Source: Minisyncoccota bacterium
GTDB taxonomy: Bacteria > Patescibacteriota > Minisyncoccia > Phycocordibacterales > JABAAK01
DNA: 64,000 nucleotides
Direction of reading: 5' to 3'
Assembly: GCA_965204115.1 (NCBI GenBank)
Contig: OZ241963.1
Coordinates: 233,293 to 297,292, forward strand
Part shown: positions 1-28,409 of the stretch, one piece after another
Layout: each line of letters begins with the position of its first letter
How positions within the stretch are numbered: the stretch's first letter is position 1
The notes under the pieces: generated by a model
The model's database searches: none
Told to the model about the DNA's origin: nothing
What the model saw: the letters and a program-made list of their open reading frames with translations, nothing else
Made by a program: the position numbers and the translations under genes

Positions 1-45
1 GATACACAGCATATCGGGCATGCTGGTGTTGTAATAAACAGTCAT

Positions 46-387
46 TTGGATAACTATAAAATCGTAAAACCGGAAGAGTTAGATAAAAAAATATTGAATA
101 TATGTGAATCAGAAAAGATAATAACTTTCATATTTCTTGCTGATCGTAAATTAACTCAAGAGGTTTTTTGTGAATATATTCATAAAACAATAGCAGGTTA
201 TGTTGAGAAGGTACCAAACGAATTGCATGGAACAAGTATTCCATTAAAAATTGATAAATACGATTCGCTCTTTGCTGTTTCACTGCCATGGAATGAGATG
301 CCGGAAACACCAGTATTTGGTTCTATGACATCTATCTCGATTGACGGATCGCAATTGATGCTGGGAATAAAAAGAAAAACGACTTAA
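46..387 (+). CDS. hypothetical protein (113 aa), first gene of the AT-rich island
   Basis: Intact ORF in the track; AT-rich codon usage matches the neighbouring genes; no recognisable motif. Confidence 0.35.
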   Translation: MDNYKIVKPEELDKKILNICESEKIITFIFLADRKLTQEVFCEYIHKTIAGYVEKVPNELHGTSIPLKIDKYDSLFAVSLPWNEMPETPVFGSMTSISIDGSQLMLGIKRKTT

Positions 388-444
388 ATAAGGGCAGGGA
401 AGGATAAGATAAGTACTGTTTGAAAGTTTCTGCAGAGTGATACA

Positions 445-1020
445 ATGAGCATGAGTATGATTAGGGATAAAAAATTAAAAGAAGCGGCGGAGATGGGAGA
501 AGGAATTGCAAGGGAGTTCAATCCCGAAACAAACATCCCCTTCCCTTTTGAGGAGATAGTAAAAAGGCACAGAGATTTAGAGTTGAGATCTGGAGATTTA
601 AGCAATGCAGGTTCGCCAATTAGTAATGACTTGTCAGGATTAATTTTGTATGACGATAGCGAGAAAAAATTTGTCATTTTGATTGAGGAGAGTAAGCCAA
701 AAAATAGAAAGTATTTCACGATTGCGCATGAATTGGGGCACTATTTCTTGCATAAGGAAGATCTAAAAGAAAAAAGTTTGGTGGTTGATGGAGATGCAAC
801 ACTCTATAGATTGGATAATGGACTGAGTAACATACAAGAATCACAGGCAAATTACTTTGCTGCTTCACTGTTAATGCCGGAGGATAGGGTTAGAAAAGCA
901 TGGAAGGCTTTTAATGAGGATGTCGAAAAATGTGCGGAATTATTTGATGTCTCTCTATCTGCTATGAGTATACGGGTGGATATATTAGACTTGAAGTATG
1001 AGTATGAAGACAGGAGATAA
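445..1020 (+). CDS. ImmA/IrrE-family (COG2856-like) zinc metallopeptidase
   Basis: HEXXH motif in the context FTIAHELGHYFLHKED, typical of ImmA/IrrE peptidases. A TTGAAA-N15-TACAAT promoter-like element overlaps the first ATG, so the real start may be M3 or M5 and the transcript may be leaderless. Confidence 0.55.
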   Translation: MSMSMIRDKKLKEAAEMGEGIAREFNPETNIPFPFEEIVKRHRDLELRSGDLSNAGSPISNDLSGLILYDDSEKKFVILIEESKPKNRKYFTIAHELGHYFLHKEDLKEKSLVVDGDATLYRLDNGLSNIQESQANYFAASLLMPEDRVRKAWKAFNEDVEKCAELFDVSLSAMSIRVDILDLKYEYEDRR

Positions 1021-1357
1021 AACACGCAAAGAACTTATAGACCATTTTCGAGAATTTGGGAAAATGTTTGAAAAGTCAGATGCAGGCTCAGGGAGCTTTG
1101 ACGAGCGAATGCAAGATTTAGGTGTGCAGGAAAAGGAGAGTGTTATAAAGTGGAGGGATAAATTTTCGAAGTTTATGACAAGGTTTTTAATGGCGCAGTA
1201 TTTTTTTATCCTCTTGTTTTTATTTTTGCAAGGATTTAAGATAGCAGGATTTCACTTAGATAACTATATTTTTTATATCCTAATAGGTGGAACTTTGGTA
1301 CAAAGTTATTTTCTAGTTAGAATTATATTTCAATATCTTTTTTCTTCGAAAAAGTAA
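998..1357 (+). CDS. small protein with a C-terminal two-TM hydrophobic region, overlapping the end of the ImmA-like gene
   Basis: ORF overlaps the upstream gene by 23 nt, suggesting translational coupling. The C-terminus YFFILLFLFLQGFKIAGFHLDNYIFYILIGGTLV is strongly hydrophobic. Confidence 0.35.
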   Translation: MSMKTGDKTRKELIDHFREFGKMFEKSDAGSGSFDERMQDLGVQEKESVIKWRDKFSKFMTRFLMAQYFFILLFLFLQGFKIAGFHLDNYIFYILIGGTLVQSYFLVRIIFQYLFSSKK

Positions 1358-1524
1358 TGTGCATCGCATGTCTCACAATACTTTTTCAGACCCAACGCAA
1401 TCCTATCAATGGCACCTGAGAGTATAAACTTCTGCAATCTGCCTGTTTTCGCTTACGCAACACTAGTGAAGTTTGCGAAAACGGCGGATTTCCTTATACG
1501 CACGACCCAATATATTTTTATTGT

Positions 1525-3204
1525 TTAATTTGTATTTCCTCTTTCTTTTAGTCTTTGAAAAAGAAAGCCAAGCACATCGGAATCTAATCTGTGAGGGAAC
1601 ACAGAAAGAAAAAAAGGGATAAATTCAGGAAATCTTTTTATTGAATCTGGAAGTGTTCTGCCATCAGAAGAGTTTGACTCATCAATCAGGTCCTTCCAAC
1701 TTTTTTCTTTTTTAGGGATTTCTGTCCTGCACTCTCCTTTCTCCGATTGCATTAAATAGTAGTCATATTTGTTATCAAAAACAAACTCCTCAAAATATAT
1801 AAATGATATTTCTCTCCATTGGTCAGATATAAAATCTTTTTGATTTAATCGTGCCATCATTTCTATAATAGGTTTTAGATAATGTGAATACTGTTTACTC
1901 TGATGTTCAAAAGGCTCTTGAGGTACGCCAAAAAACCTATTAACTACAAAATTTAAAACAAAATTTAAATCAAAGTATGGAGGAAGTAGTCCAGTTTCGC
2001 TCTCTGCATTTCTACCATTGTATTTAATTATTTCACTTATAGCGTGTTCCACCAAACTAACACCTTCCTCTTTGCTTTCATCAGAACATGTCAACATCAA
2101 CGCAAGAAGTATGAGAGGCAATAATCCTCCTTCGCCATATAAAAATATACTGCCCCTGTATTTATCAATTATGTCTTTTTGTAGAATATCTTTTATTTGA
2201 ATATTTTTTTGACTGATAACTTCAGACACTTTGAGCGAAAATATCATTGATACAGCACCATGATTGCGAAATGGGATTAAGTTTATTTCGGTTTGTGGTA
2301 ACTTAATCTTATCAAAGGTGTCCCCTGAAAGCATGGCAAGTCCCTTGCTTTCCACCTCTAATTCCAATTTTTTTGCTGTACTTAACATGTCCCCCCATAC
2401 AAGGTTATATGATTTTAACCAATATTTTTCTGCAAGATTATATCTATCAACCAAATAAAAAATTAATGAGAGCAATAAGGTCATAACTCTTATCACAGAA
2501 ACATGATTTTCTTTCTCCCTGTATGGTCCGGTGATCATAGTCATATACAAAATTGCAGCGGATACATCTCTTTTTCGTTTTTCTTTTGCCCTTTCCTCAT
2601 TGATGCCAAGTATTTGACATAAGAATGGAAATATCTCTGACAAATCTACAAAACTTGTTCCATCTGCAAAAATTAAATTGCTGAGGGTTTTATATGCCCG
2701 CGCATCTTGAGGTAAAACCTCTACGGCAATTTCTTGGAACCCTTGTAACAAATCTCCTCTTGTAAGAACTCTGAGTGGCGTGTTTTTCCACCTTCCGTTA
2801 TTTAAACCATTTATATCAGCCCTTACGCTATCATCTATATTTCCATTTGTTACTAAAAATGATATGTGCTTCTTGTTTTGATCTATGTTTGGATGAGCAA
2901 TGGGTATTTCAATTAGCACTTCAACTTCTGGCTTAACCTCAGTGCGCCAACGATGCAGATTTATATTTCCACCTTTCAGTTGATATGCACAAGGCGCTCC
3001 ATTAAAGTCAACGGCAACAACATCTTTTCCTTGTTCAAAGTTGGTATTCTTTATTTCATATTTAACAGCATACCCTTGGAATGAAAGCCACTCGCAAAAT
3101 AATGACTGATAGCTGAGTTCGTTTACTGAATCCAGCCAGTGTTCGATAACCCTTTGTAAAAAGGGTTCGTTTGTTTCTTTTTGTTTTACTGTTTTTTTGC
3201 TCAT
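1525..3204 (-). CDS. large hypothetical protein (559 aa) with an N-terminal PD-(D/E)xK nuclease-like motif; last gene of the four-gene defence-like operon
   Basis: N-terminal EWLSFQGYAV ... KDVVAVDFNGAPCAYQLKGG fits the E / hhhD / (E/Q)xK spacing of restriction-endonuclease-fold domains. The remainder has no recognisable motif. Separated by 2 nt from the upstream gene. Confidence 0.4.
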   Translation of the reverse strand: MSKKTVKQKETNEPFLQRVIEHWLDSVNELSYQSLFCEWLSFQGYAVKYEIKNTNFEQGKDVVAVDFNGAPCAYQLKGGNINLHRWRTEVKPEVEVLIEIPIAHPNIDQNKKHISFLVTNGNIDDSVRADINGLNNGRWKNTPLRVLTRGDLLQGFQEIAVEVLPQDARAYKTLSNLIFADGTSFVDLSEIFPFLCQILGINEERAKEKRKRDVSAAILYMTMITGPYREKENHVSVIRVMTLLLSLIFYLVDRYNLAEKYWLKSYNLVWGDMLSTAKKLELEVESKGLAMLSGDTFDKIKLPQTEINLIPFRNHGAVSMIFSLKVSEVISQKNIQIKDILQKDIIDKYRGSIFLYGEGGLLPLILLALMLTCSDESKEEGVSLVEHAISEIIKYNGRNAESETGLLPPYFDLNFVLNFVVNRFFGVPQEPFEHQSKQYSHYLKPIIEMMARLNQKDFISDQWREISFIYFEEFVFDNKYDYYLMQSEKGECRTEIPKKEKSWKDLIDESNSSDGRTLPDSIKRFPEFIPFFLSVFPHRLDSDVLGFLFQRLKERGNTN

Positions 3205-3206
3205 AA

Positions 3207-3809
3207 TTAATCAATAATTTTTCTTGATTTGACATCTGCCATGTGTTCTTCAAATTTTTTATCTAGTATCTCTTCTTTTTTTCTATCAAATTCAGCTTTT
3301 TCCTGAGGTGTTTGTTTCTTTTCTATCTCCATAAGCCTCTTAGAGACGGTTGGGTGTACAATTAATGACTGTTCGGATGGTTTATTCCTGTCGTCATTGT
3401 GAAAATAAATTTTTACATTTTCCATTCCCTTAAGGATGATGTCTGGACCAACCTCTGAAACATTTACTATGTTTCCGCTGTCAGCCATACTCTTTGCTAT
3501 CGCCTGGATCGCATCTCCCTCAATTTGATTTGCCACATCTGCAGACATGTCGGAAAACATGGTAAGTACATCCTCTGAAGACATATTTCTCATTTGCTTA
3601 GAGGAAATTGACATCTTGGATGAAGCTTCGTTTAGGTGTTCTACACTGTGTGTTCCATCCTCATATAAAACTCCCGTTTTATCGCCCTCATATAAGGACT
3701 GTTTAGGAACCATTGCGAGCAGAGGAGATTTTGTTTTTATCTCTTGTCTTATTGAAATATCGACGAAAATCCTTAGTTTTTCTTTTGCTTTTGGAAAATC
3801 TGGTATCAT
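3207..3809 (-). CDS. hypothetical protein (200 aa), third gene of the operon
   Basis: Intact AT-rich ORF, 27 nt downstream of the DUF262-HNH gene and 2 nt upstream of the 559-aa gene; no recognisable domain. Confidence 0.4.
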   Translation of the reverse strand: MIPDFPKAKEKLRIFVDISIRQEIKTKSPLLAMVPKQSLYEGDKTGVLYEDGTHSVEHLNEASSKMSISSKQMRNMSSEDVLTMFSDMSADVANQIEGDAIQAIAKSMADSGNIVNVSEVGPDIILKGMENVKIYFHNDDRNKPSEQSLIVHPTVSKRLMEIEKKQTPQEKAEFDRKKEEILDKKFEEHMADVKSRKIID

Positions 3810-3836
3810 TCTTGTATTTTACCATCTAACTATACT

Positions 3837-4928
3837 TTATTTTCCAGATTTTCTTCGATTACATTCTTTATATAACATCTGACAGTTTTCTGCGACTGTT
3901 TTACCGCCTTCATGCCAAGGGGTGATGTGGTCGGCTTCCATGTCTTCAATTTCAAAATGCTCTTCACACACCGGGCAGATACCTTTTTGTCTTTCGTATG
4001 CTTCACGCTTCATATTGGGAGTAAAGGCACGGATTGAAAGAGATTTCTCTTGGCGAGTTAAAACATATGGGTAGATGCCTGATTTATCCGTGACATCTTC
4101 ATCTTGCATGAGTCTGGTAATTTCGGTTTCCAATTTTTCGGCATTCAGTTTTTTATCTTTGAATTGGTTGTACAAATCGCCCCATTTTACACCTTTCATT
4201 TCATTACGATAGTTAGTGAAAACCTTGCGCACCCATGTAATGACACTTTGAAAATAATCCCAGAGTTCATTTGCATTATTATCATGCTGGTGTTTTGCCA
4301 TATAGTCTGCGACCTCCCCATCATTGATCCACAAAAGAGCGGTTTCCAAGTACTCTTGCCTGATGGGTGAACCTTTTATGAGTGACCCTCCATCATTTGC
4401 TAAAAGATACGCTGCACAACCTGTTTTACTGAATTTTAATTTTGCGTCAGAGAGCCATGGGCCGGTGTAGACCGCGTTTCTGATCTCTTGATCCGTTAAT
4501 TTTTCGCCTGCGATATTAATGGTAAAGAACCAATCCAAACGCTCTTTGTCTGTGCCTTCACAAAAGTAAATCATAAGTTCGTAGTCAAGAATCTGTTTCT
4601 GCTCTTCGGCAGTGAGATTGTGAAAAAAGCGGTCGTTGAGCAAGAAGTCACCATTTACATACTGTCCGATACTGATGGTACGCTGCTGTCCGTCCAACAT
4701 TTCATAGGTGCCATCTCCCTTAACCATCCAGTACATCACATTAAGGGGGAAATTTTGTTTGACGGTCTCAATAACCGCATTGCGCTGTTTGTCGTCATAG
4801 ACAAACTCTCTCTGGTATTTTGGACGAACATCCAATTTGCCATCATAGGCAACAACGCCTTCTTCTTTACTATCTTTATACCCTTTAACCACATCACGAA
4901 CTTTGATTTTCTCTAAGTCAATTTTCAT
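3837..4928 (-). CDS. DUF262 (GmrS/ParB-like NTPase) + C-terminal HNH nuclease fusion; GmrSD-like / type IV restriction-like protein
   Basis: DUF262 signatures KYQREFVY and DGQQRT. C-terminal HNH: CPVCEEHF...DHITPWHEGGKTVAENCQMLYKECNRRK. Confidence 0.7.
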   Translation of the reverse strand: MKIDLEKIKVRDVVKGYKDSKEEGVVAYDGKLDVRPKYQREFVYDDKQRNAVIETVKQNFPLNVMYWMVKGDGTYEMLDGQQRTISIGQYVNGDFLLNDRFFHNLTAEEQKQILDYELMIYFCEGTDKERLDWFFTINIAGEKLTDQEIRNAVYTGPWLSDAKLKFSKTGCAAYLLANDGGSLIKGSPIRQEYLETALLWINDGEVADYMAKHQHDNNANELWDYFQSVITWVRKVFTNYRNEMKGVKWGDLYNQFKDKKLNAEKLETEITRLMQDEDVTDKSGIYPYVLTRQEKSLSIRAFTPNMKREAYERQKGICPVCEEHFEIEDMEADHITPWHEGGKTVAENCQMLYKECNRRKSGK

Positions 4929-4929
4929 A

Positions 4930-5979
4930 CTATTTTTTGTTTTTGATTAAGATACGCTTAAACTTCTTTTTTCCACTGATGTAAATTGCATTTGCAAACG
5001 AATATACACCGTCCGCTCCAACCGATCCTACATGACCAATGATTTCAAATTGTTTGGGGTTGTATTTGTCCACAAAGGTTACAGGCACACCCATTACACC
5101 ACTATAATCCATCGGGATGTCAGTATATTTGTCTATATTGATTGCATCATAGTTATCATATTTTGGATATTCTTTTGGAGTGTATTTTTTATATAGAGTC
5201 AATTCCTCGTGACGCTTGGCGACATCTAAATTGGTAAACCATAAGATGCTGCCCATACTGAAGTACTTAATACCGTCCTCAACTTTGATTCTGGATTCGG
5301 TTTGAATGTCGTAATCCTCAGGCACTTGAAACCATTTGGTTCCGCCGTTATCGTACCCCAACCATAATCGGTTTTCCTTGATAAACTTAAAAATTTCTTT
5401 GTAAGTAATGGCGTTTTGATTCCCTAGGATCAAAAATTCCTTTTGGTGTTCCATTAGTTGTGCAACATAGTCTCGAAAAAGCGAAAACGGTGGATTGGTT
5501 ACCACTATATCTGCCTGTTTAAGCAGGCTGATACACTCATCGCTGCGAAAATCTCCATCACCTTTAAGCGGTGTGGCAACATTGGCGTCTTGTCTTAGTA
5601 ATTGCTTAACATCTCCTAAACTAACCGCTCCGTCATTATTGAGGTCTTTAACTTCGTTAATCTCAATTCTAAATGGCTCTTTTCCTTCTGGCTTCAATCC
5701 TTCTATCTCAACGAGTGGTAATTGCCCGCCAGCAATTGGTGATCTTATGTAGCTTGTGGCAATGAGTTTTTTAAGTCCTAAGGCATTAAAACTGGCAGCA
5801 AAATACTTGAAGAAATTACTTTCATAAGGGTCATCGCAGTTACAATATACAACCTTACCGCGGAACTGCTCTTTATAGTGTCTTAGTTCTTTTTCAATGT
5901 CAACAAGTTGAGTGTAAAACTCATCCTTTTTTGCCTTAGCTGCCTGGTGAAGACCTGTATTGTTCACTTTTGTATCCAT
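4930..5979 (-). CDS. N6-adenine DNA methyltransferase (NPPF catalytic motif IV)
   Basis: IVVTNPPFSLFRDY is motif IV ((D/N)PP(Y/F)) of amino-MTases. N-terminal DEFYTQ and CNCDDPYES resemble the EcoRI-methylase-like adenine MTase family. Stop lies 1 nt before the next gene. Confidence 0.65.
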   Translation of the reverse strand: MDTKVNNTGLHQAAKAKKDEFYTQLVDIEKELRHYKEQFRGKVVYCNCDDPYESNFFKYFAASFNALGLKKLIATSYIRSPIAGGQLPLVEIEGLKPEGKEPFRIEINEVKDLNNDGAVSLGDVKQLLRQDANVATPLKGDGDFRSDECISLLKQADIVVTNPPFSLFRDYVAQLMEHQKEFLILGNQNAITYKEIFKFIKENRLWLGYDNGGTKWFQVPEDYDIQTESRIKVEDGIKYFSMGSILWFTNLDVAKRHEELTLYKKYTPKEYPKYDNYDAINIDKYTDIPMDYSGVMGVPVTFVDKYNPKQFEIIGHVGSVGADGVYSFANAIYISGKKKFKRILIKNKK

Positions 5980-6175
5980 ACATTAATATGGTACATTGCT
6001 TTTACTTGTTTTTATTATTCCGCATTGAACATATAAAGCAGTAGCGCCCCTTGTGGGGCCTGGTTCGTATTTGGGAGCATGAATTAAAAGGAGACGGCAA
6101 AACCGCCACAAGAAAAATCTAAAAGTTTTTCAAGTATTAGCTGCTTATTCACCCTCACATTATTTGTTCAAGTCT

Positions 6176-6772
6176 TTACCTTTCTGGCGGACGAGGATGC
6201 AAACTACTTACAGGTATGTTTTTTTCTCCCAGTACGACATCCCTTAATCCTATTGCCATTATCACAGCAAATTGCTCAACCTCCCTTCCTTCACTAAACA
6301 GGTATTCTTTTATTTTCTTTAACTCGGGTGAAGCGTCATTTTTACTTTTTAATATTTCTTTCACAATATCTTTTGATTTTTCCTGTATATCAAAAGCACC
6401 GTCAACATTTTTAAACTTTTCTATCAGGATGTCCTTATTTTTTTTAATGTAGTCTTCAGCACCACTGTTACGAAAAGTTTCCTTTCCAACATCAGTGAGG
6501 GACAGAGGGCTTTGGGTTGCAACTTCTTGCCTTCCTTTCATTTGATTTAACTCTTTTGAGTTTTCTTTTACATCATCCTCAAGGGTTTTTATTTTTTTGT
6601 CCGCATTTTCCAAATTTGTCTCAAGTACACTTAATTTTACTTTCATTGTTACTAACGCAACAACAAGTGCTATAGCTGCAGACACTCCGAGGTCAATAAG
6701 CGAAGGCAGAGAGTTGGTATTACTGGCAGCAGATTCAGAGGTAGATTGAGCTATTACTTCAATAGGAATCAT
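6176..6772 (-). CDS. membrane-anchored coiled-coil protein, hypothetical
   Basis: N-terminal TM helix (LGVSAAIALVVALVTM) followed by a K/E-rich heptad-like sequence. Confidence 0.35.
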   Translation of the reverse strand: MIPIEVIAQSTSESAASNTNSLPSLIDLGVSAAIALVVALVTMKVKLSVLETNLENADKKIKTLEDDVKENSKELNQMKGRQEVATQSPLSLTDVGKETFRNSGAEDYIKKNKDILIEKFKNVDGAFDIQEKSKDIVKEILKSKNDASPELKKIKEYLFSEGREVEQFAVIMAIGLRDVVLGEKNIPVSSLHPRPPER

Positions 6773-6983
6773 ATGTTCAGTTTAACATAAACCAATTGAT
6801 TATACAAGAATATGTGGACACTGGTGACATGATTGATATGTTGAGTACATGATGCTGGATAACCTATAAATGGCGGGTTAATTAAAGTCTATATTTCTGC
6901 TACCCTGTTGCACGGAGCGGAGCGGAGATGGTGCAGTGTTTGTGTACACAATCGCTGCACTGTTTTGAATGGGCGAGGAGGGT

Positions 6984-7673
6984 TTATAAAATAGATGTAA
7001 ATAGGTTGTGGTATTTATCAAGATAGTGAGACAATTCTTTTCTCTTGTACTGCATGATGTAGCGTGGGTGTTCTAATGAATGCACCCTGTTGAACCATTT
7101 GTACTCTTCATTCAGTTCGGTAAAAAATTTATAATTTTTTCCGGATCCGAGAATGATGACGGCATCACTTCTGACACCACATTCAAACTGTGCAAGCAGT
7201 GAATTGACAATAAACGGCTTAAGCATTGTCTGCATTTCTATGCTGTCATAGTAATTATAGTTCTTGCCATGCTGTGTGAAGCCAATTGGCGACACTGCGG
7301 TGAGAAAAAAATTGCTGTAAAATGTTTCTGCTCCTCCGAATTTTTCAATAAAGGTGTACAGGAACTTTGATGAGAGTTCACGACGCTCCTTAAATGTGTT
7401 TGGAATATCACAGTGCTCAGAGAGTGCGATTGGATCGGTGAAAGGGATTCCGGTAACACCTGATCCGAATCTCCCCGGGTTAATACCCAGAACAAAAACC
7501 CTTTCATTGGTATCGTAAAAATACTTTTTTAAAAACATCTTTACATACTTAAAAATTTCCCCATCTTTATGCGGCTCTATTGCTTCAACACCACTTATCG
7601 TGATTTCAGGGACACATACATTTTCGAAGAAGTCAATAATTTTGTCATAGAAAGTTTTTTGGCTTGATAACAT
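6984..7673 (-). CDS. uracil-DNA glycosylase superfamily protein, SMUG-like
   Basis: LGINPGRFGSGVTGIPFTDP closely matches the SMUG1 catalytic motif GMNPGPFGMAQTGVPFGE. A second His-containing motif (HPRY) lies near the C-terminus. Confidence 0.55.
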   Translation of the reverse strand: MLSSQKTFYDKIIDFFENVCVPEITISGVEAIEPHKDGEIFKYVKMFLKKYFYDTNERVFVLGINPGRFGSGVTGIPFTDPIALSEHCDIPNTFKERRELSSKFLYTFIEKFGGAETFYSNFFLTAVSPIGFTQHGKNYNYYDSIEMQTMLKPFIVNSLLAQFECGVRSDAVIILGSGKNYKFFTELNEEYKWFNRVHSLEHPRYIMQYKRKELSHYLDKYHNLFTSIL

Positions 7674-7837
7674 GTCATTCCTCCGTGTTCACAATGATCA
7701 AGTGTTTTATAGCAAAAACACTCCACACCTCATTTTATCACACAGATAAATCTTTCAGAGAGACGGTTTGTCCAACTTGTTTACCTATTCCCTAAAACAT
7801 AACAAGGGGCAGCCGATGGCTGCCCCCATAAATTTGT

Positions 7838-8230
7838 TTATGCTTCTACACCTTCATCATCTTCGGACGACTCATCCTGCTCATCATATCCTACTTTCCA
7901 TAGAGAAAATATCCAGGGAAGGAATAAAAATATCATTATTATGTGAATATAGTAGGCACCATACTTACTCATTTCATGAAGGCCTCTCGGATCAAGCGAT
8001 TCGCCAGACATGTCAATGAATATCACAGGAGGTAATCCGAAAACTATAATCACATAATGCAGTGCTAACGGTATCCAAGATATGACAAGGAAATGATTAA
8101 TCAGCCATCCAGCAAAACGACCGAGTTTGGAGGACGGGTATCTTGATGTCGTGATAGCATAGCATGCAACACCGACCGCAAACAAGATGTACAACTCTTG
8201 TGGTGCAAAGTGGTACTTCACACTTTCCAT
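7838..8230 (-). CDS. integral membrane protein, hypothetical (130 aa)
   Basis: Multiple hydrophobic helices with an acidic C-terminal tail. Confidence 0.35.
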   Translation of the reverse strand: MESVKYHFAPQELYILFAVGVACYAITTSRYPSSKLGRFAGWLINHFLVISWIPLALHYVIIVFGLPPVIFIDMSGESLDPRGLHEMSKYGAYYIHIIMIFLFLPWIFSLWKVGYDEQDESSEDDEGVEA

Positions 8231-8232
8231 AA

Positions 8233-8430
8233 TTAAATACCCTTACCTTTTTTGAAAAAACGCTCATAGATCCATTCGACAAAGGGATCGTTTGCAGCCA
8301 TGATTGTCACGACAACGCATGACAATACAAATATTCCTCCAATCGTATTTGTAACTGGCAAAATAAACAAAAGCACTATTACACAAGGTACCCCAATAAA
8401 TACATATGTCATCCATTTAAAGCGCTTCAT
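8233..8430 (-). CDS. small membrane protein, hypothetical (65 aa)
   Basis: Two hydrophobic helices; 2 nt upstream of the 7838..8230 gene, operon-like. Confidence 0.3.
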   Translation of the reverse strand: MKRFKWMTYVFIGVPCVIVLLFILPVTNTIGGIFVLSCVVVTIMAANDPFVEWIYERFFKKGKGI

Positions 8431-8619
8431 TGGATAATACCTCCTTTTAAGAGATTAAATGTAGTACATAGAAATGAACATACTAGTAATAGTATACACT
8501 GTTATGCTAAAATGCCTTATTTTGTCATATTATGAATCTGTCAGAGAAAAAGATTGGCTGATTTTTCAGGACATCATTTTTTATTATGAGATAGTGGTAT
8601 ATACTATACTTTGTCTATT

Positions 8620-8691
8620 GGCCCCATCGTCTAGCGGCTAGGACGCCGCCCTTTCACGGCGGAAACCGGGGTTCGATTCCCCGTGGGGTCA
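8620..8691 (+). tRNA. tRNA-Glu (anticodon TTC)
   Basis: Manual cloverleaf: acceptor GGCCCCA/TGGGGTC, D-arm GTCT-AGCGGCTA-GGAC, anticodon stem CCGCC/GGCGG with loop CTTTCAC, T-arm CGGGG-TTCGATT-CCCCG, discriminator A. CCA is not encoded. Confidence 0.8.
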
Positions 8692-8737
8692 CATTTTGGT
8701 GGTGTTATGGTTATCGTGTTGTACGACACCTACTCTG

Positions 8738-18738: not shown

Positions 18739-19089
18739 ATGGAGGGAACAGTAAAATCATTTGAGGAGTATCATACGAAGACCGACGCAACCGCTATCTA
18801 TGATCGCGGTGATGCAATCAGAGAATTGTCATACCTTTCTCTCGGCTTAAACGGCGAGGCAGGTGAAGTTGCTGACAAGGTGAAGAAAGTTATTCGCGAT
18901 GATGGCGGCAACCTCTCTTCCGAGCACAAAGATGCTCTGGCGAAAGAGCTCGGTGATGTGCTGTGGTACCTCACACAACTTTCCCGAGCAATCGGCACCT
19001 CGCTTGAAGCGGTGGCGACTATGAATATCAAAAAGCTTGCGGAACGCAAGAAGGGCAACACTTTGCGCGGCTCCGGGGATGATCGCTGA
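18739..19089 (+). CDS. MazG-like nucleotide pyrophosphohydrolase (small NTP-PPase)
   Basis: EAGEVAD....ELGDVLWYLTQLS matches the MazG/NTP-PPase EExGE...E..D signature. The track ORF starts at 18577 inside rsmI; the first sensible ATG (MEGTVKSF) is at 18739. Confidence 0.55.
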   Translation: MEGTVKSFEEYHTKTDATAIYDRGDAIRELSYLSLGLNGEAGEVADKVKKVIRDDGGNLSSEHKDALAKELGDVLWYLTQLSRAIGTSLEAVATMNIKKLAERKKGNTLRGSGDDR

Positions 19090-19129: not shown

Positions 19130-19324
19130 CTACTTGGTTTCCTTGTAGGTGGTATGTTTGCGGAGTTTTTGGTTATATTTATTCAGCACAAGCGGATCCG
19201 GGTTTTGCTTCCGGTTTTTACGGGTAACATAATGGATATCCCCGGTCTCCTCACATTTCATCCTTATTAGGTTATCTTGTGACATATGTGCTTTAGTATA
19301 CCACACTGTCGCATTATTTTTCAA
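19130..19324 (-). CDS. rpmG: 50S ribosomal protein L33 (zinc-ribbon-less C- form)
   Basis: HYVTRKNRKQNPDPLVLNKYNQKLRKHTTYKETK matches the bL33 C-terminal consensus. Only one Cys remains. The start is probably an internal Met. Confidence 0.65.
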   Translation of the reverse strand: MKNNATVWYTKAHMSQDNLIRMKCEETGDIHYVTRKNRKQNPDPLVLNKYNQKLRKHTTYKETK

Positions 19325-19347
19325 AAAAGTGGTATACTCACTTCATC

Positions 19348-19433
19348 GCGTCGGTGGCAGAGTGGTCAAATGCAGTGGGCTGTAAACCCGCCGCCTTCGG
19401 GCTTCGCAGGTTCGAATCCTGCCCGGCGCACCA
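19348..19433 (+). tRNA. tRNA-Tyr (anticodon GTA), long variable arm, CCA encoded
   Basis: Acceptor GCGTCGG/CCGGCGC, anticodon loop CTGTAAA, variable arm CGCCTTCGGGCTTC, T-arm GCAGG-TTCGAAT-CCTGC, ACCA end. Confidence 0.85.
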
Positions 19434-19505
19434 GGCAGTTCTGTGGTGTGTACCGAGGATTGTGTATTAGTAAAAATGTGAAGCAGATATGGTATACTTT
19501 TGTTA

Positions 19506-19676
19506 ATGAGTAAAAAGAGGAAAAAAAATAAGGGGTACACCTATGATACGCCCGTTAGCACTCTTGCAAAAGATCATGGTATCAATTTTGATGTTCCACC
19601 TGATACAAAACTTGGTGATTTTTTCAAAGGTACGGAACTTGACGGTCTCGCGCGGTTCTTAAAGTGGAAGATATGA
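19506..19676 (+). CDS. small ORF (56 aa, MSKKRKKNKGYTYDTPVSTLAKDHGINFDVPPDTKLGDFFKGTELDGLARFLKWKI), overlaps the downstream HEPN-like gene in an ATATGA junction
   Basis: Read directly from the sequence; below the 60-aa cutoff of the ORF track. AT-rich like its downstream partner. Protein-like composition. Confidence 0.3.
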   Translation: MSKKRKKNKGYTYDTPVSTLAKDHGINFDVPPDTKLGDFFKGTELDGLARFLKWKI

Positions 19677-20197
19677 AGAATTTTGACTTTGTCGACGATC
19701 CTCCGTTGCGGGAGAGAGTTGAAGGGGTGCGGAATGATGTTGCTACACTCGGAGTATTACTGAGGGAGCAAAACAAGCCAGAGGTAAAAAGTTGTCTTAG
19801 GAAAACGATGATTATTTACATTGCATCAATTATAGAAGCACTATTGCTTTGGAAATTGAAAAAAGAAATTGCATCAGACAAGGTGGTCTTGAGTAGTGAA
19901 TGGAAGTATCTTGATCTCAAGAAATTTTATAAAACTGACGAGTTTGAGCTGATTGCCGGTAAACGAAAACAAGAGGTTAAGAAAATTGATGATCTGGATT
20001 TTAACCGCGCGATAGATGTGTGTGAGAAGCATCGAGCCGTGAAGAGTACAAGACTTATTAAAGATTTGCACAAGGTAAGAAAGTTAAGAAATGAGCTGCA
20101 CATTGGTGGCATTGCAGCTATTAGAAAAACATACACGCGGAATGATTTAACATTTGTTTTTGACACCTTGGAAAAAACGATGTTGTCAATGAAATGA
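19673..20197 (+). CDS. HEPN-like (Abi/RiboL-PSP-like) protein, hypothetical
   Basis: C-terminal VRKLRNELHIGG fits the HEPN Rx4-6H / RNxxH motif seen in Abi-type HEPN proteins. GC is markedly lower than the flanks. The track ORF begins at a GTG at 19664; the first ATG is 19673. Confidence 0.4.
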   Translation: MKNFDFVDDPPLRERVEGVRNDVATLGVLLREQNKPEVKSCLRKTMIIYIASIIEALLLWKLKKEIASDKVVLSSEWKYLDLKKFYKTDEFELIAGKRKQEVKKIDDLDFNRAIDVCEKHRAVKSTRLIKDLHKVRKLRNELHIGGIAAIRKTYTRNDLTFVFDTLEKTMLSMK

Positions 20198-20219
20198 TTT
20201 TTATGCTGCGGGTCTGTTC

Positions 20220-22928
20220 CTACGCCAACATCTCTTCGCGTTTCTTTGTTTTTGCTTTCGCTTTTTTGGTGGCGGTGCGTTTTTTGGTGGTGTCAAATTT
20301 GTATTCGCCGTTCTCAATGCAGATGTTGACGCTTGAACCCTTGCCGAGGTTGCCCTCAATGATGGCGTTGGCGAGTGGGTTGAGGAGGTCGGTTTGGACT
20401 TTTCTGCGGAGCGGGCGGGCACCGTATTCGGCGTGATAGCCCTCCTTGCCGATTTTTTCGTAGACCGCGCGGTCAACGGTGATGGTAATTTCTCGTTCGG
20501 CGAGGCGCTGTATTGCCTCGTCTACTACCAACGTTACCACTTTTCTGATACTCGTCTTATCAAGCGGCTTGAAGACGATTATTTCATCCAATCGGTTTAA
20601 AAATTCCGGCCTGAATGATTTTTGCAAAGTTTCCATCACTCTATTTCGAACCTCGTCATACTGTCTTGATCGCTCTTCGGATTTTTTCACCGCCTCTTCA
20701 AACCCAATTTGGTTCATATTGATCAGTTTCTCAGAGCCGACATTAGAGGTGAGAATGACCACCGTGTTTTTAAAGTTTACCACCCGCCCCTTACTGTCGG
20801 TGAGGCGGCCGTCATCCAGCACCTGCAGCAGCACATTGAACACATCAGGGTGCGCTTTCTCCACTTCGTCAAACAATACGATGGAGTACGGTCGGTGGCG
20901 AACTGCCTCGGTCAATTTCCCCGCTTCTTCATAGCCGACATAGCCGGGAGGCGCGCCGAGTATTTTAGACACCGTGTGTCGCTCCATATATTCAGACATA
21001 TCAAGTCGTATTAATGCCCTTTCGTCATCAAATAGATACTGCGCGAGTTGCTTTGTCAGCTCGGTTTTTCCGACCCCGGTCGGACCGAGAAACAGGAATG
21101 AGCCGACCGGTCGGTTTGGGTTTGCTATGCCGGCGCGTGACCGCTTAATTGCCGCGGCGATTTTTTCTATAGATTCATCCTGTCCGATAATACGCTTTTT
21201 TAATTCTGCTTCCATTCTGGTCAATTTTTTCGCCTCGCTCTCAAGCATTTTTGTCGCCGGAACGCCTGTCCACCGCGCGATCACATGCGCGATGTCTTCT
21301 TCGGTCACCTCTTCCCGCAGTATCTTTCTGTTCTTTTGTAATCGCTTCAGTCGTGCTTGTGCCCGCTTAAACTTGCTCTCAATCTGCGGAATGTCCTTGT
21401 ACCGAATTTCTGCTGCCTGGGTAAAGTCGGCCTTACTCTCTGCCTCTTCGCCGGCATAGCGTTTCTGCTCAAGGTCGGACTGCATCTCCTTAATCTGCTC
21501 GATGGTTTCTTTCTCATTCTTCCAACGCACTTCCAACTCCCTGCTTTCCTCCTTTACATCGGCGATTTCTTTTTCCAGCTGCTTCATTCGCTCTTTGGAA
21601 CCTTCATCCTTTGTTGCTTCGTGGTCTTTTTTCACCGCCTCCATCTCAATCTCCAGCTGCATAATTTTGCGATGCGCCGAATCCAGTTCAGGCGGCTTGT
21701 TCTCAAGCGACACCCGTATCAGGGAAGCCGCTTCGTCCACCAAGTCAATCGCCTTGTCCGGCAAAAATCGTTCAGTGATATATCGACTGCTTAGCTGCGC
21801 TGCCGCCACGATTGCCGCGTCAGTAATGCGTACCCCGTGGTACACCTCGTACCGTTCCCGCAAACCGCGCAGAATAGAAATTGCGTCTTCAACGGACGGT
21901 TCAGATACATACACCGGTTGAAACCGTCGTGTCAGTGCACCGTCTTTTTCAATGTGCCGCTGATACTCTTTTAAGGTGGTTGCGCCGACCATGCGCATTT
22001 GCCCCCGAGCAAGTGCCGGCTTTAGGATATTCGCGGCGTCCATCGTCCCTTCAGCATTTCCGGTGCCGACCAGTGAGTGTATTTCATCCACGAACAGAAT
22101 ATATTTATCCCCTGCGTCTTCCACTTCTTTCATCACTTTTTTCAGACGATCTTCAAACTCTCCCCGAAACTTTGTCCCGGCGAGCATAGACACCACATCC
22201 AAACTGTACAGCTCCTTTGAGCGCATAGATTCCGGCACATCACCGGAGACAATTCGCTGTGCTAACCCCTCACCGATCGCGGTTTTACCGGTTCCCGCCT
22301 CACCGATGAGAATCGGGTTGTTTTTTGTCCTGCGCGATAGTATCTGGATAACCCGCGCGGTTTCCTCATCCCGCCCGATAACCGGGTCCAGTTTATTTTC
22401 CCGCGCCATCTGTGTGAGGTTGCGTCCGTATTTTTCTAAACTTTTTGCTTTTGGGTTCTGCACCTCCTCCTTGCTTTCCTTTCGCAGCTGTACGATTGTT
22501 TCGTGGACTTCTTTGGCGTGCAGTCCGTACCCTTCCAGCAAATTGCGCAGGATACCCGGCTTTTCAAGCACTGCTAAAAATAGGTGTTCAGTTGAGATGT
22601 GCTTTTCTTTCATTGCGCTCGCAATTTTACCTGAATGCTCAAGCACGATGGCAAGCTCCGGTGTCGGGTAGAGCTGCACAATCGGTGACCCCTCTATATC
22701 AAATGATGAAGCGCGGGATTCTAACAGCCCAATCGCCTGGTTGTATAGCGCGTAGGGGTCAATGTTTAATTTTTGCAGCACCGGCTGCACAATACCGTCT
22801 TCCTGCCCGACCAATGCGGTGAATAAATGTACCGGGCTGATATTTTGATGTCCGTTATCAACGGCAAGTTCCTGCGCCATCCGAAAGGCCTCTTTCGCTT
22901 TCGCGGTAAATTGCTGGAACGATGACAT
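20220..22928 (-). CDS. clpB: ATP-dependent chaperone ClpB
   Basis: Clp N-domain, two AAA modules ([15 protein letters not shown]; [15 protein letters not shown]), long coiled-coil M-domain between NBD1 and NBD2, and a Lys-rich C-terminal tail. The start is probably MSSFQQF at 22928 rather than 22946. Confidence 0.85.
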
Positions 22929-28195: not shown

Positions 28196-28279
28196 GCCGA
28201 GGTGGCGGAATTGGTAGACGCACTGGTCTTAGGAACCAGCGGGGTAAAACCCATGGAGGTTCAAGTCCTCTCCTCGGCA
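28196..28279 (+). tRNA. tRNA-Leu (anticodon TAG), long variable arm
   Basis: Acceptor GCCGAGG/CCTCGGC, anticodon stem CTGGT/ACCAG with loop CTTAGGA, variable arm CGGGGTAAAACCCATGG, T-arm with TTCAAGT loop. Confidence 0.8.
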
Positions 28280-28315
28280 CAAACAATTCCGCCACCTCGG
28301 TGGCGACTAGTTAGT

Positions 28316-28409
28316 CAGCACCAATCGGAGATTGGCGGCACGGGTAGACGCACTGGTCTTAGGAACCAGCGGGGTAAAACCCATGGAGGTTCAAGTCCTC
28401 TCCTCGGCA
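28316..28409 (+). pseudogene. partial duplicate of tRNA-Leu(TAG): 67 nt identical from D-loop to 3' end, with a non-pairing 5' acceptor
   Basis: GGTAGACGCACTGGTCTTAGGAACCAGCGGGGTAAAACCCATGGAGGTTCAAGTCCTCTCCTCGGCA is repeated exactly. The upstream TCGGAGA cannot pair with CCTCGGC (3 mismatches). An inverted copy of the tRNA 5' end (CAATTCCGCCACCTCGG, 28284-28300) lies between the two copies. Confidence 0.45.

Follow-up and report, generated by a model that had tools for sequence, protein, structure and literature searches.

HepT, the HEPN protein of the HepT-MntA module, carries the motif Rx4HxY, the tyrosine of which is AMPylated, while the HEPN toxins RnlA and LsoA are directly inhibited by Dmd, a protein of 60 amino acids. 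The sequence signature of HEPN ribonucleases is Rx4-6H with a polar residue after the arginine, and HEPN domains without catalysis usually lose this motif (PMC3710099). The same paper describes the anticodon nucleases PrrC and RloC as HEPN proteins, notes that DUF4145 is also associated with restriction-modification (R-M) systems, and considers an insert that separates helix 2 from helix 3 to be typical of the HEPN domain (PMC3710099). The locus described here was found in a 64,000-nt stretch of DNA, referred to throughout as the window, and consists of two overlapping genes, one for a very small basic protein and one for a protein with a predicted HEPN fold.

Layout and composition of the cassette

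The landmark of this locus is a tRNA-Tyr gene (GTA) at nucleotides 19348–19433 of the + strand, which was detected by ARAGORN, scores 57.9 bits with the Rfam tRNA model and lies outside the cassette. After a gap of 72 bp comes the ATG of an ORF on the same strand (19506–19676; ATG at 19506, TGA at 19674–19676) specifying a basic protein of 56 amino acids, MSKKRKKNKGYTYDTPVSTLAKDHGINFDVPPDTKLGDFFKGTELDGLARFLKWKI, putatively the antitoxin of the HEPN protein or a regulator of it. The stop codon of this ORF overlaps the start of the next + strand ORF (19673–20197; ATG at 19673, stop at 20195–20197) in the tetranucleotide ATGA at 19673–19676. The first-pass annotation had recognized this overlap correctly and had assigned 175 residues to the downstream protein, the actual length of which is 174. 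This second product has the HEPN fold and is a predicted endoribonuclease. Beyond it lies clpB, on the opposite strand and convergent with the cassette, which ends at nucleotide 20220 and is considered an incidental neighbour.

The GC content of nucleotides 19506–20197 is 0.384, against 0.477 for the window as a whole and 0.504 for clpB, and the GC content at third codon positions is 0.37–0.40 in the cassette versus 0.57 in clpB. An AT-rich, two-gene stretch on the 3' side of tRNA-Tyr, as proposed at first reading, is therefore what the measurements describe. Segments of 692 bp that are equally AT-rich make up 8.4% of the window, and apart from the cassette they all fall within one island at 1–8660; the drop in GC is real and local, yet not unique within the window. 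That second AT-rich island (about 1–8660) stops some 20 bases before a tRNA-Glu gene, and holds an EcoRI-like methylase and a GmrSD_N-HNH gene that shows 70.5% identity to a counterpart directly preceding a cassette at another locus (L032). The 200-amino-acid gene following GmrSD-HNH (3210–3809) was considered as a possible relative of the cassette and proved to be unrelated (hhalign probability 0.1%).

Comparison with the related loci L002 and L003 gave dN/dS ratios of 0.20–0.36 for the small ORF and 0.06–0.11 for the large one. Because both are under purifying selection, both are genes and not chance ORFs. A tblastn search revealed no second copy of the cassette in the window, in which there is also no nucleotidyltransferase gene adjoining the cassette and no cas gene near it. 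An Rfam scan across 19200–20400 returned the tRNA and no further structured RNA family.

An element that reads as an extended -10-like promoter, TGGTATACT, is located at 19490–19498 on the + strand, 7 nt ahead of the ATG of the small ORF. A second copy is found at 19330–19338, 9 nt ahead of tRNA-Tyr, and its reverse complement at 19295–19304 is the L33 promoter site of the minus-strand promoter scan. No + strand site was called by the consensus scan because there is no -35 element. Since the same element is present at tRNA-Tyr and at the L33 promoter, the cassette is probably transcribed from a host-type promoter of its own, and its message is probably leaderless or nearly so.

The 56-residue protein has a pI of 9.7 and possesses a lysine- and arginine-rich N-terminal tail, followed by a body of about 45 amino acids which forms a domain of three short helices. 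The median pI of its family is 10. The family consensus, x-K-G-x-F-x-x-K-R-x-DTKVxTIEKKYGVDLGVRxDMKLGNYLKxKGYPSLSxMLK, looks like two D-x-K-phi-G-x-phi-phi-K-K-x-G units and a final helix. A profile search yielded 932 clusters, not one of which carried a Pfam domain or an informative name. The protein itself has no significant sequence match in Pfam, NCBIfam or the PDB, the NTP_transf_2 domain is absent, and it shows no sequence similarity to any solved chain. Neither a recognisable fold nor a fold relative was detected, and this includes the HTH and RHH folds. In PHROGs, one member of the small-protein family matched a phage transcriptional-repressor family with an E-value of 0.019, which is at chance level, as are the PHROGs matches of both cassette proteins. 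Many antitoxins are acidic, unlike this protein. Because it is basic and has no detectable fold relative, it is the arrangement of the genes that points to an inhibitory role. At L002 one of the two cassette genes is uncalled.

Fold and predicted active site of the HEPN protein

Like its partner, the 174-amino-acid protein has no significant sequence match in Pfam, NCBIfam or the PDB. A homolog search recovered 65 proteins of about 175 amino acids, all of them unannotated, and those assigned to a named organism are from Patescibacteria. Clustered at 50% identity, the family is represented by about 616 clusters, almost all of them stand-alone proteins of 100–216 residues; among 150 listed representatives the single one longer than 216 residues is P0322, with 252. 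P0322 was examined as a possible fusion of the two cassette proteins. The underlying DNA (L036) contains two TAG codons in frame, which were read as glutamine during gene calling; P0322 is therefore a gene-calling artefact and provides no evidence of interaction.

Modelling with AlphaFold2 on the family alignment (pLDDT 89.8, pTM 0.82) gave four long helices in an up-and-down bundle, the arrangement that defines the HEPN superfamily, with a β-hairpin and short helix of about 35 residues inserted between helices 2 and 3. The closest structural matches to this model include AF0298, TTHA0636, HI0074 and YutE. Further matches are to the HEPN domains of Roquin, sacsin and AbiA, and then to Csm6, RnlA, LsoA and HepS. 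The model thus shows that the large protein has the HEPN fold, which the first-pass annotation had predicted from a motif.

Two collections of sequence profiles touch the family faintly. The PADLOC CARF_HEPN model matched the window protein with an E-value of 0.0038 and the best family member with 2e-5, both below the thresholds; the matches pair residues 75–143 of the protein with positions 189–257 of the 454 in the model, and stop at RNxxH. In Pfam, DUF4145 (PF13643) is the sole family touched, matched by 3 of 34 members (best E-value 0.0026), although the best score of 18.2 bits is below the gathering threshold of 23.1 bits and the window protein itself gave no match. The DUF4145 match covers the motif and the helix preceding it.

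The motif sequence, VRKLRNELHIGG, occupies residues 135–146, and not the C-terminus at which it had originally been placed. Its predicted catalytic portion, R136-K-L-R139-N140-E-L-H143, is specified by nucleotides 20078–20101 of the + strand. In an alignment of 34 family proteins, designated A1, residues R136, R139, N140 and H143 are invariant, as are K44, T45, S52 and E55 of helix 2. Among all 54 members analyzed, RNxxH is present without exception (54/54), and the position three residues upstream of it is arginine in 53 and lysine in one. The first-pass annotation had fitted this sequence to both forms of the HEPN motif, Rx4-6H and RNxxH. The RNxxH part of that proposal holds for every member. 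For Rx4-6H the fit depends on which arginine is counted: R139 is separated from H143 by three spacer positions, one short of the range, and R136 from H143 by six, which would correspond to Rx6H. The residue following R139 is the polar N140, and the R136 position is followed by K, E or N across the family. Since the arginine, asparagine and histidine are retained among proteins that are only 28–40% identical, they suggest an active site and not a degenerate HEPN domain. By analogy with other HEPN toxins, RNxxH with its upstream arginine is most likely the site of a metal-independent endoribonuclease.

Pairing, distribution and gene neighbourhoods

A homolog of the small gene is located directly upstream of the HEPN gene in 48 of 48 non-redundant cassettes, all 48 on Patescibacteria-type contigs. 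Conservation of the 56-amino-acid ORF had been suggested as a check on the original reading, and wherever the DNA of a related locus extended far enough upstream, the small gene was indeed found directly ahead of the HEPN gene. In the genomes it encodes about 55–65 amino acids, lies on the same strand, and overlaps the HEPN gene or stands within a few bases of it. In the metagenomes it is directly upstream in 38 of 38 loci, a count that leaves aside two with upstream DNA too short for the small gene. It is also present with a distant, 200-amino-acid HEPN subfamily, and each of two look-ups begun with the small protein led to a HEPN-like gene downstream. Across 54 pairs, the degrees of divergence of the two proteins correlate with each other (Mantel r=0.55, p=0.001). 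In sum the layout is that of a generic type II-like toxin-antitoxin (TA) system: two small, co-directional, overlapping genes with a patchy and mobile distribution and sometimes in multiple copies.

The interval between tRNA-Tyr and clpB was compared in relatives, as the first-pass annotation had advised, and the cassette does not occupy this site in all of them. At L002, whose HEPN protein is 86% identical, the pair is present at the same tRNA-Tyr/clpB site. At L028, with a ClpB that is 92% identical, the order clpB, tRNA-Tyr, L33, RsmI and DUF87-ATPase is maintained and neither cassette gene can be traced; in place of the cassette the interval from clpB to the tRNA contains 2.8 copies of a 225-bp tandem repeat. 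Two other relatives with 85–86% identical ClpB proteins differ in gene order and lack the cassette in the fetched flanks. The relatives with an empty site were found through ClpB homologs, an identical L33 protein having led only to the same genome. At L003 the cassette (77% identical) is at another locus, between two complete tRNA-Val(TAC) genes which constitute a 92-nt direct repeat. Four paralogues of the cassette are carried on one contig of 1.1 Mb, and at L019 the HEPN gene is split into fragments, a decayed copy. Everywhere it was compared with its flanks (23 of 23 loci) the cassette is the more AT-rich, by 0.01 to 0.19.

Transfer RNA genes are found within 300 bp of 8 of the 48 non-redundant cassettes. 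Their density is 9 in the 28 kb of the near zone versus 12 in the 248 kb of the far zone, or approximately 6.6-fold over expectation (Poisson probability 1e-5). At seven of these eight loci, six of them independent, the cassette faces the 3' end of the tRNA; at L060, the eighth, the 5' end is the one faced. A search for an att-like repeat, in the form of the tRNA 3' end copied beyond the cassette, was negative in the window and at L002, L008, L015 and L021, and flanking repeats occur only at L003, where they are the whole tRNA-Val genes. There is no integrase in or beside the cassette in the window, which consequently shows neither of the hallmarks, integrase and att direct repeats, of a tRNA-targeting integrative island. 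Searches of IMG/VR contigs, INPHARED phages and PLSDB plasmids returned no relatives of the cassette. The cassette is horizontally acquired, and its family is so far known only from Patescibacteria/CPR-type contigs; to judge from the sequences compared, it is also mobile.

Most of the loci, including that in the window, are among housekeeping genes, which is no surprise in genomes of this size, and a sizeable minority has a defence or mobile setting. Translation-related neighbours are seen at many loci, namely YqeY/HflX, YchF, HisRS, TyrRS, L25, NusA and tRNAs. As for R-M genes, the cassette is positioned between hsdS and hsdR at L024 and L070, directly ahead of hsdR at L064, and between hsdR and a Phd antitoxin gene at L038. 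It directly follows a GmrSD_N-HNH gene at L016, L032 and L039. At L031 it lies between a type III R-M system and an SNF2/DUF4391 pair, and at L018 an MmeI-type enzyme is followed by a 242-amino-acid ORF of unknown function and then by the cassette. Elsewhere it precedes an Mrr nuclease (L011), cas12a (L041) or RhuM (L067), is found beside large serine recombinases (L033-35 and L040), or is near PemK (L027). Enrichment of the cassette near tRNA genes and in defence neighbourhoods is thus evident.

Function and comparison with known systems

The reading of this locus as a mini defence or TA island, offered in the first-pass annotation, gains support from the related cassettes at many loci, often next to R-M or other defence genes. 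None of the three refuting outcomes named there came about: a HEPN fold is predicted, the small ORF is conserved, and not all relatives have the pair at this site. From the fold, the gene arrangement and the neighbourhood we infer a TA or defence function. Because the cassettes frequently sit within clusters of restriction or other defence genes, they probably represent a TA or anti-phage module, and we consider it fairly probable that the family is a new HEPN module of the toxin-antitoxin or abortive-infection type. The same applies to the RNase activity, to the RNA that would be cut, to inhibition by the small protein and to the trigger. In the proposed mechanism, the product of the small upstream gene, which is translationally coupled to the HEPN gene, would bind the HEPN protein and keep it silent; the basic tail may also repress the operon. 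Events such as phage infection, stress, or the disappearance of the cassette or a nearby R-M system would remove or displace the small protein, and the freed RNase would then cut cellular or phage RNA (tRNA, rRNA or mRNA) and bring translation to a stop. Here the insertion lies on the 3' side of tRNA-Tyr, beside clpB. Several observations count against a toxin-antitoxin or abortive-infection module: the arginine-to-histidine spacing of three is outside Rx4-6H and the Rx6H fit requires R136, which is lysine in at least one member; the small protein is basic and without a detectable fold relative; most loci have a housekeeping context; no viral, phage or plasmid homolog was found; and the window shows no att-like repeats around the cassette. 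A more far-reaching version, which we put forward tentatively and hold to be the less likely, is an autonomous anti-phage or anti-plasmid system of Patescibacteria, in which a HEPN nuclease of the anticodon type, its RNxxH site non-canonical, would be under the control of a novel class of proteins about 57 amino acids long and with a new fold. It would act as a second line behind R-M, following the logic of PrrC but lacking the ATPase, and insertion beside tRNA genes would be its means of spread.

The main rival to an inhibited toxin also makes the HEPN RNase a defence effector, and takes the small protein for a nucleic-acid-binding regulator, sensor or specificity subunit instead of an inhibitor. 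It might, for example, be an operator-binding repressor or an adaptor bringing the RNase to tRNA or the ribosome, with activation by the state of neighbouring R-M systems or by a phage product, in the manner of a PrrC-like guard. The cassettes in or beside type I R-M operons, including the position of prrC between hsdS and hsdR (L024, L070, L064 and L038), and the recurrence beside GmrSD-HNH (L016, L032 and L039) are in keeping with such a guard, and a basic protein with a lysine- and arginine-rich tail is just as compatible with a regulator or adaptor that binds DNA or RNA. The faint match of one member to a phage transcriptional repressor (E-value 0.019) leans the same way, but it is at chance level and no HTH or RHH fold was detected. 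Moreover, most cassettes have no adjacent R-M genes, yet the small gene is always kept, so that the pair looks self-contained; we judge this alternative unlikely.

A quite improbable explanation is that the HEPN protein is a housekeeping RNase for RNA processing or regulation, engaged for example in the maturation or turnover of tRNA or rRNA, with the small protein as cofactor, in which case proximity to tRNA genes would reflect co-expression with the substrates. The many loci among translation-related genes, the enrichment of tRNA genes near cassettes and the strong purifying selection on the HEPN gene are what it would predict. It accords poorly with a patchy distribution, in which the cassette is missing from the same site and from the fetched flanks of the closest relatives, with loci that differ between lineages and up to four copies on one contig, with DNA that is always AT-richer than that of the host, with the links to recombinases and defence genes, and with at least one decayed copy (the fragmented HEPN gene of L019). 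Equally doubtful, or slightly more so, is a non-catalytic HEPN domain serving as a binding or scaffold module in a non-toxic regulatory pair, as in nucleotidyltransferase-associated HEPN proteins, sacsin and MtlR. The spacing of three between arginine and histidine, outside the canonical range (PMC3710099), and the presence of non-catalytic sacsin, GlnE and kanamycin nucleotidyltransferase among the structural neighbours would agree with this. However, arginine, asparagine and histidine occur in 54 of 54 members at 28–40% identity, which is the pattern of an active site, whereas HEPN domains devoid of catalysis usually lose the motif (PMC3710099), and the best structural matches are active toxins. 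Both the housekeeping and the non-catalytic reading are therefore disfavoured by a distribution that is patchy, multi-copy and compositionally foreign, together with the invariant motif, and a toxin-antitoxin or abortive-infection module is preferred.

Patescibacteria are abundant episymbionts with tiny genomes, in which few defence systems have been recognised. Their immune or addiction repertoire would be extended by a two-gene signature, open to searching, that recurs near R-M, GmrSD-HNH and Cas12a genes. Should RNase activity be confirmed, the spacing in RNxxH would widen the sequence definition of active HEPN sites. The partner protein, for its part, may exemplify a new kind of inhibitor or regulator for RNases of the HEPN class. 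For genome annotation, two hypothetical proteins become one defined mobile cassette. Full-text literature searches found no paper on such a pair in Patescibacteria.

Among the described systems, HepT-MntA (HEPN/MNT, DUF86; Shewanella SO_3166/SO_3165, PDB 5yep; Aphanizomenon, 7ae2) resembles the cassette: each is an operon of two genes for a small, stand-alone HEPN protein and its partner, with the partner gene upstream, an overlap between the genes, and a patchy and mobile distribution. The partners differ, that of the cassette being a 56-amino-acid protein with neither a nucleotidyltransferase domain nor a Pfam match, and thus no MNT antitoxin; because it lacks this domain, neutralisation by AMPylation is not expected. 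The HEPN proteins differ as well: in place of the HepT motif the cassette protein has RNxxH-I-G (RNELHIGG), no member of A1 has a tyrosine two residues after the histidine, the hairpin of about 35 residues between helices 2 and 3 sets it apart, and it shows no sequence match to the 5yep and 7ae2 chains.

With the PrrC/RloC anticodon nucleases the cassette shares a predicted HEPN RNase and, at L024, L070 and L064, the classic position of prrC. Unlike them, its HEPN protein is stand-alone (170–215 residues) without an N-terminal ABC-type ATPase domain, a dedicated small partner is always present, and most cassettes are outside R-M operons; those at L024, L070, L064 and L038 lie in type I operons, and in the window the neighbours are tRNA-Tyr and clpB. 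In the RnlA-RnlB and LsoA-LsoB systems, Dmd of phage T4 sets a precedent for a tiny inhibitor of HEPN RNases (PDB 5hy3), whereas RnlA and LsoA are multi-domain proteins of about twice the length of the cassette HEPN protein. The weak Pfam match relates the latter to the DUF4145 HEPN domains found in R-M and defence proteins, the RNase RAZR (PMC13017515) among them; DUF4145 is usually fused to other domains, unlike the stand-alone cassette protein with its small partner. The weak PADLOC matches concern the HEPN part of the CARF-HEPN effectors Csm6/Csx1 of type III CRISPR systems; in contrast to these, the cassette protein has no CARF domain, its whole 174 residues making up one HEPN domain.

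By its predicted fold the protein is thus a member of the HEPN superfamily that lacks the defining features of HepT-MntA, PrrC/RloC, Csm6/Csx1 and DUF4145. The module is solid and testable in an under-studied phylum and is not a conceptual surprise: the effector fold and the logic are known, and what is new is an unannotated, lineage-specific family, the unusual spacing of its motif and its partner protein.

Promoter-like element of the cassette

The element TGGTATACT is present at 19330-19338 and 19490-19498, lying 7-9 nt upstream of tRNA-Tyr (19348-19433) and of the small, 56-aa ORF (19506-19676) that precedes the gene for the HEPN-fold protein (19673-20197). Its reverse complement is found at 19295-19304, where the promoter of the minus-strand L33 gene was called. 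Judged from the sequence, TGGTATACT probably represents this organism's extended -10 promoter type, which implies leaderless or near-leaderless transcripts.

AT-rich island and neighbouring genes of related cassettes

Only one other part of the window, a second island at 1-8660, matches the cassette in AT-richness, and its end lies approximately 20 bases before tRNA-Glu (8620-8692). Among its products are an M78/IrrE-like peptidase (445-1017), a GmrSD_N-HNH nuclease (3840-4928, minus strand), an EcoRI-like adenine methylase (4933-5979, minus strand) and a UDG-family protein; several of the island proteins had no Pfam match. A GmrSD_N-HNH gene also directly precedes a small+HEPN cassette at locus L032, and its product shares 70.5% identity with the one from the island.

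On a metagenome contig (L041), the gene directly downstream of a small+HEPN cassette (4601-8518) specifies a Cas12a-like protein of more than 1300 aa, possessing RuvC_1 and REC1 domains and a TLRFEL motif in its N-terminus. The 1.1-Mb contig ctg717281l (L027) contains four paralogous HEPN genes (products P0008, P0009, P0025 and P0028); one cassette is situated between two giant ORFs, coding for 9096 and 13082 aa, with a PemK-like toxin gene nearby.

Broken or joined copies

At L036 (381-1139 of a 1.3-kb contig), the small and HEPN frames are continuous in-frame except for two TAG codons, which in the public gene call are read as Gln to give a 252-aa "fusion". Beyond the second TAG, the HEPN part lacks a canonical start codon. 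The joined frames could represent TAG recoding, a pseudogene or an artefact of the gene caller. In a Shapirobacteria locus (L019, 3713-4465) the small gene is present and the HEPN gene is likely a pseudogene, since it is broken into fragments of 25 and 132 aa; the locus is situated about 800 bp upstream of a clpB gene.

tRNA genes at the cassette sites

In L028, the close relative which has no cassette at this site, the clpB/tRNA-Tyr spacer (5730-6364) is made up of a tandem repeat with a 225-bp unit, present in 2.8 copies with 98% matches, the final unit of which extends into the 3' end of tRNA-Tyr. In the units before it, 18 of 22 bases of this 3' end are matched, a weak copy that did not rise above shuffled controls. 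Recurrent recombination at tRNA-Tyr may have left the repeat as a scar. In the window (18739-19089), as in the cassette-bearing relative L002, a MazG-like gene separates rsmI from the L33 gene; it is absent from the syntenic L028 region, a further small presence/absence difference near the cassette site. Elsewhere in the window, two tandem tRNA-Leu(TAG) genes (28196-28280 and 28325-28408) are clustered with tRNA-Lys, tRNA-Leu(TAA) and tRNA-Cys.

The 77% identical cassette at a different locus, L003, is flanked by two complete tRNA-Val(TAC) genes (4527-4618 and 5638-5729). The pair constitutes a 92-nt direct repeat, 98% identical, which includes 10 nt of 5' leader. This is a duplication of the whole tRNA, whereas the usual pattern is a duplicated partial 3' end.
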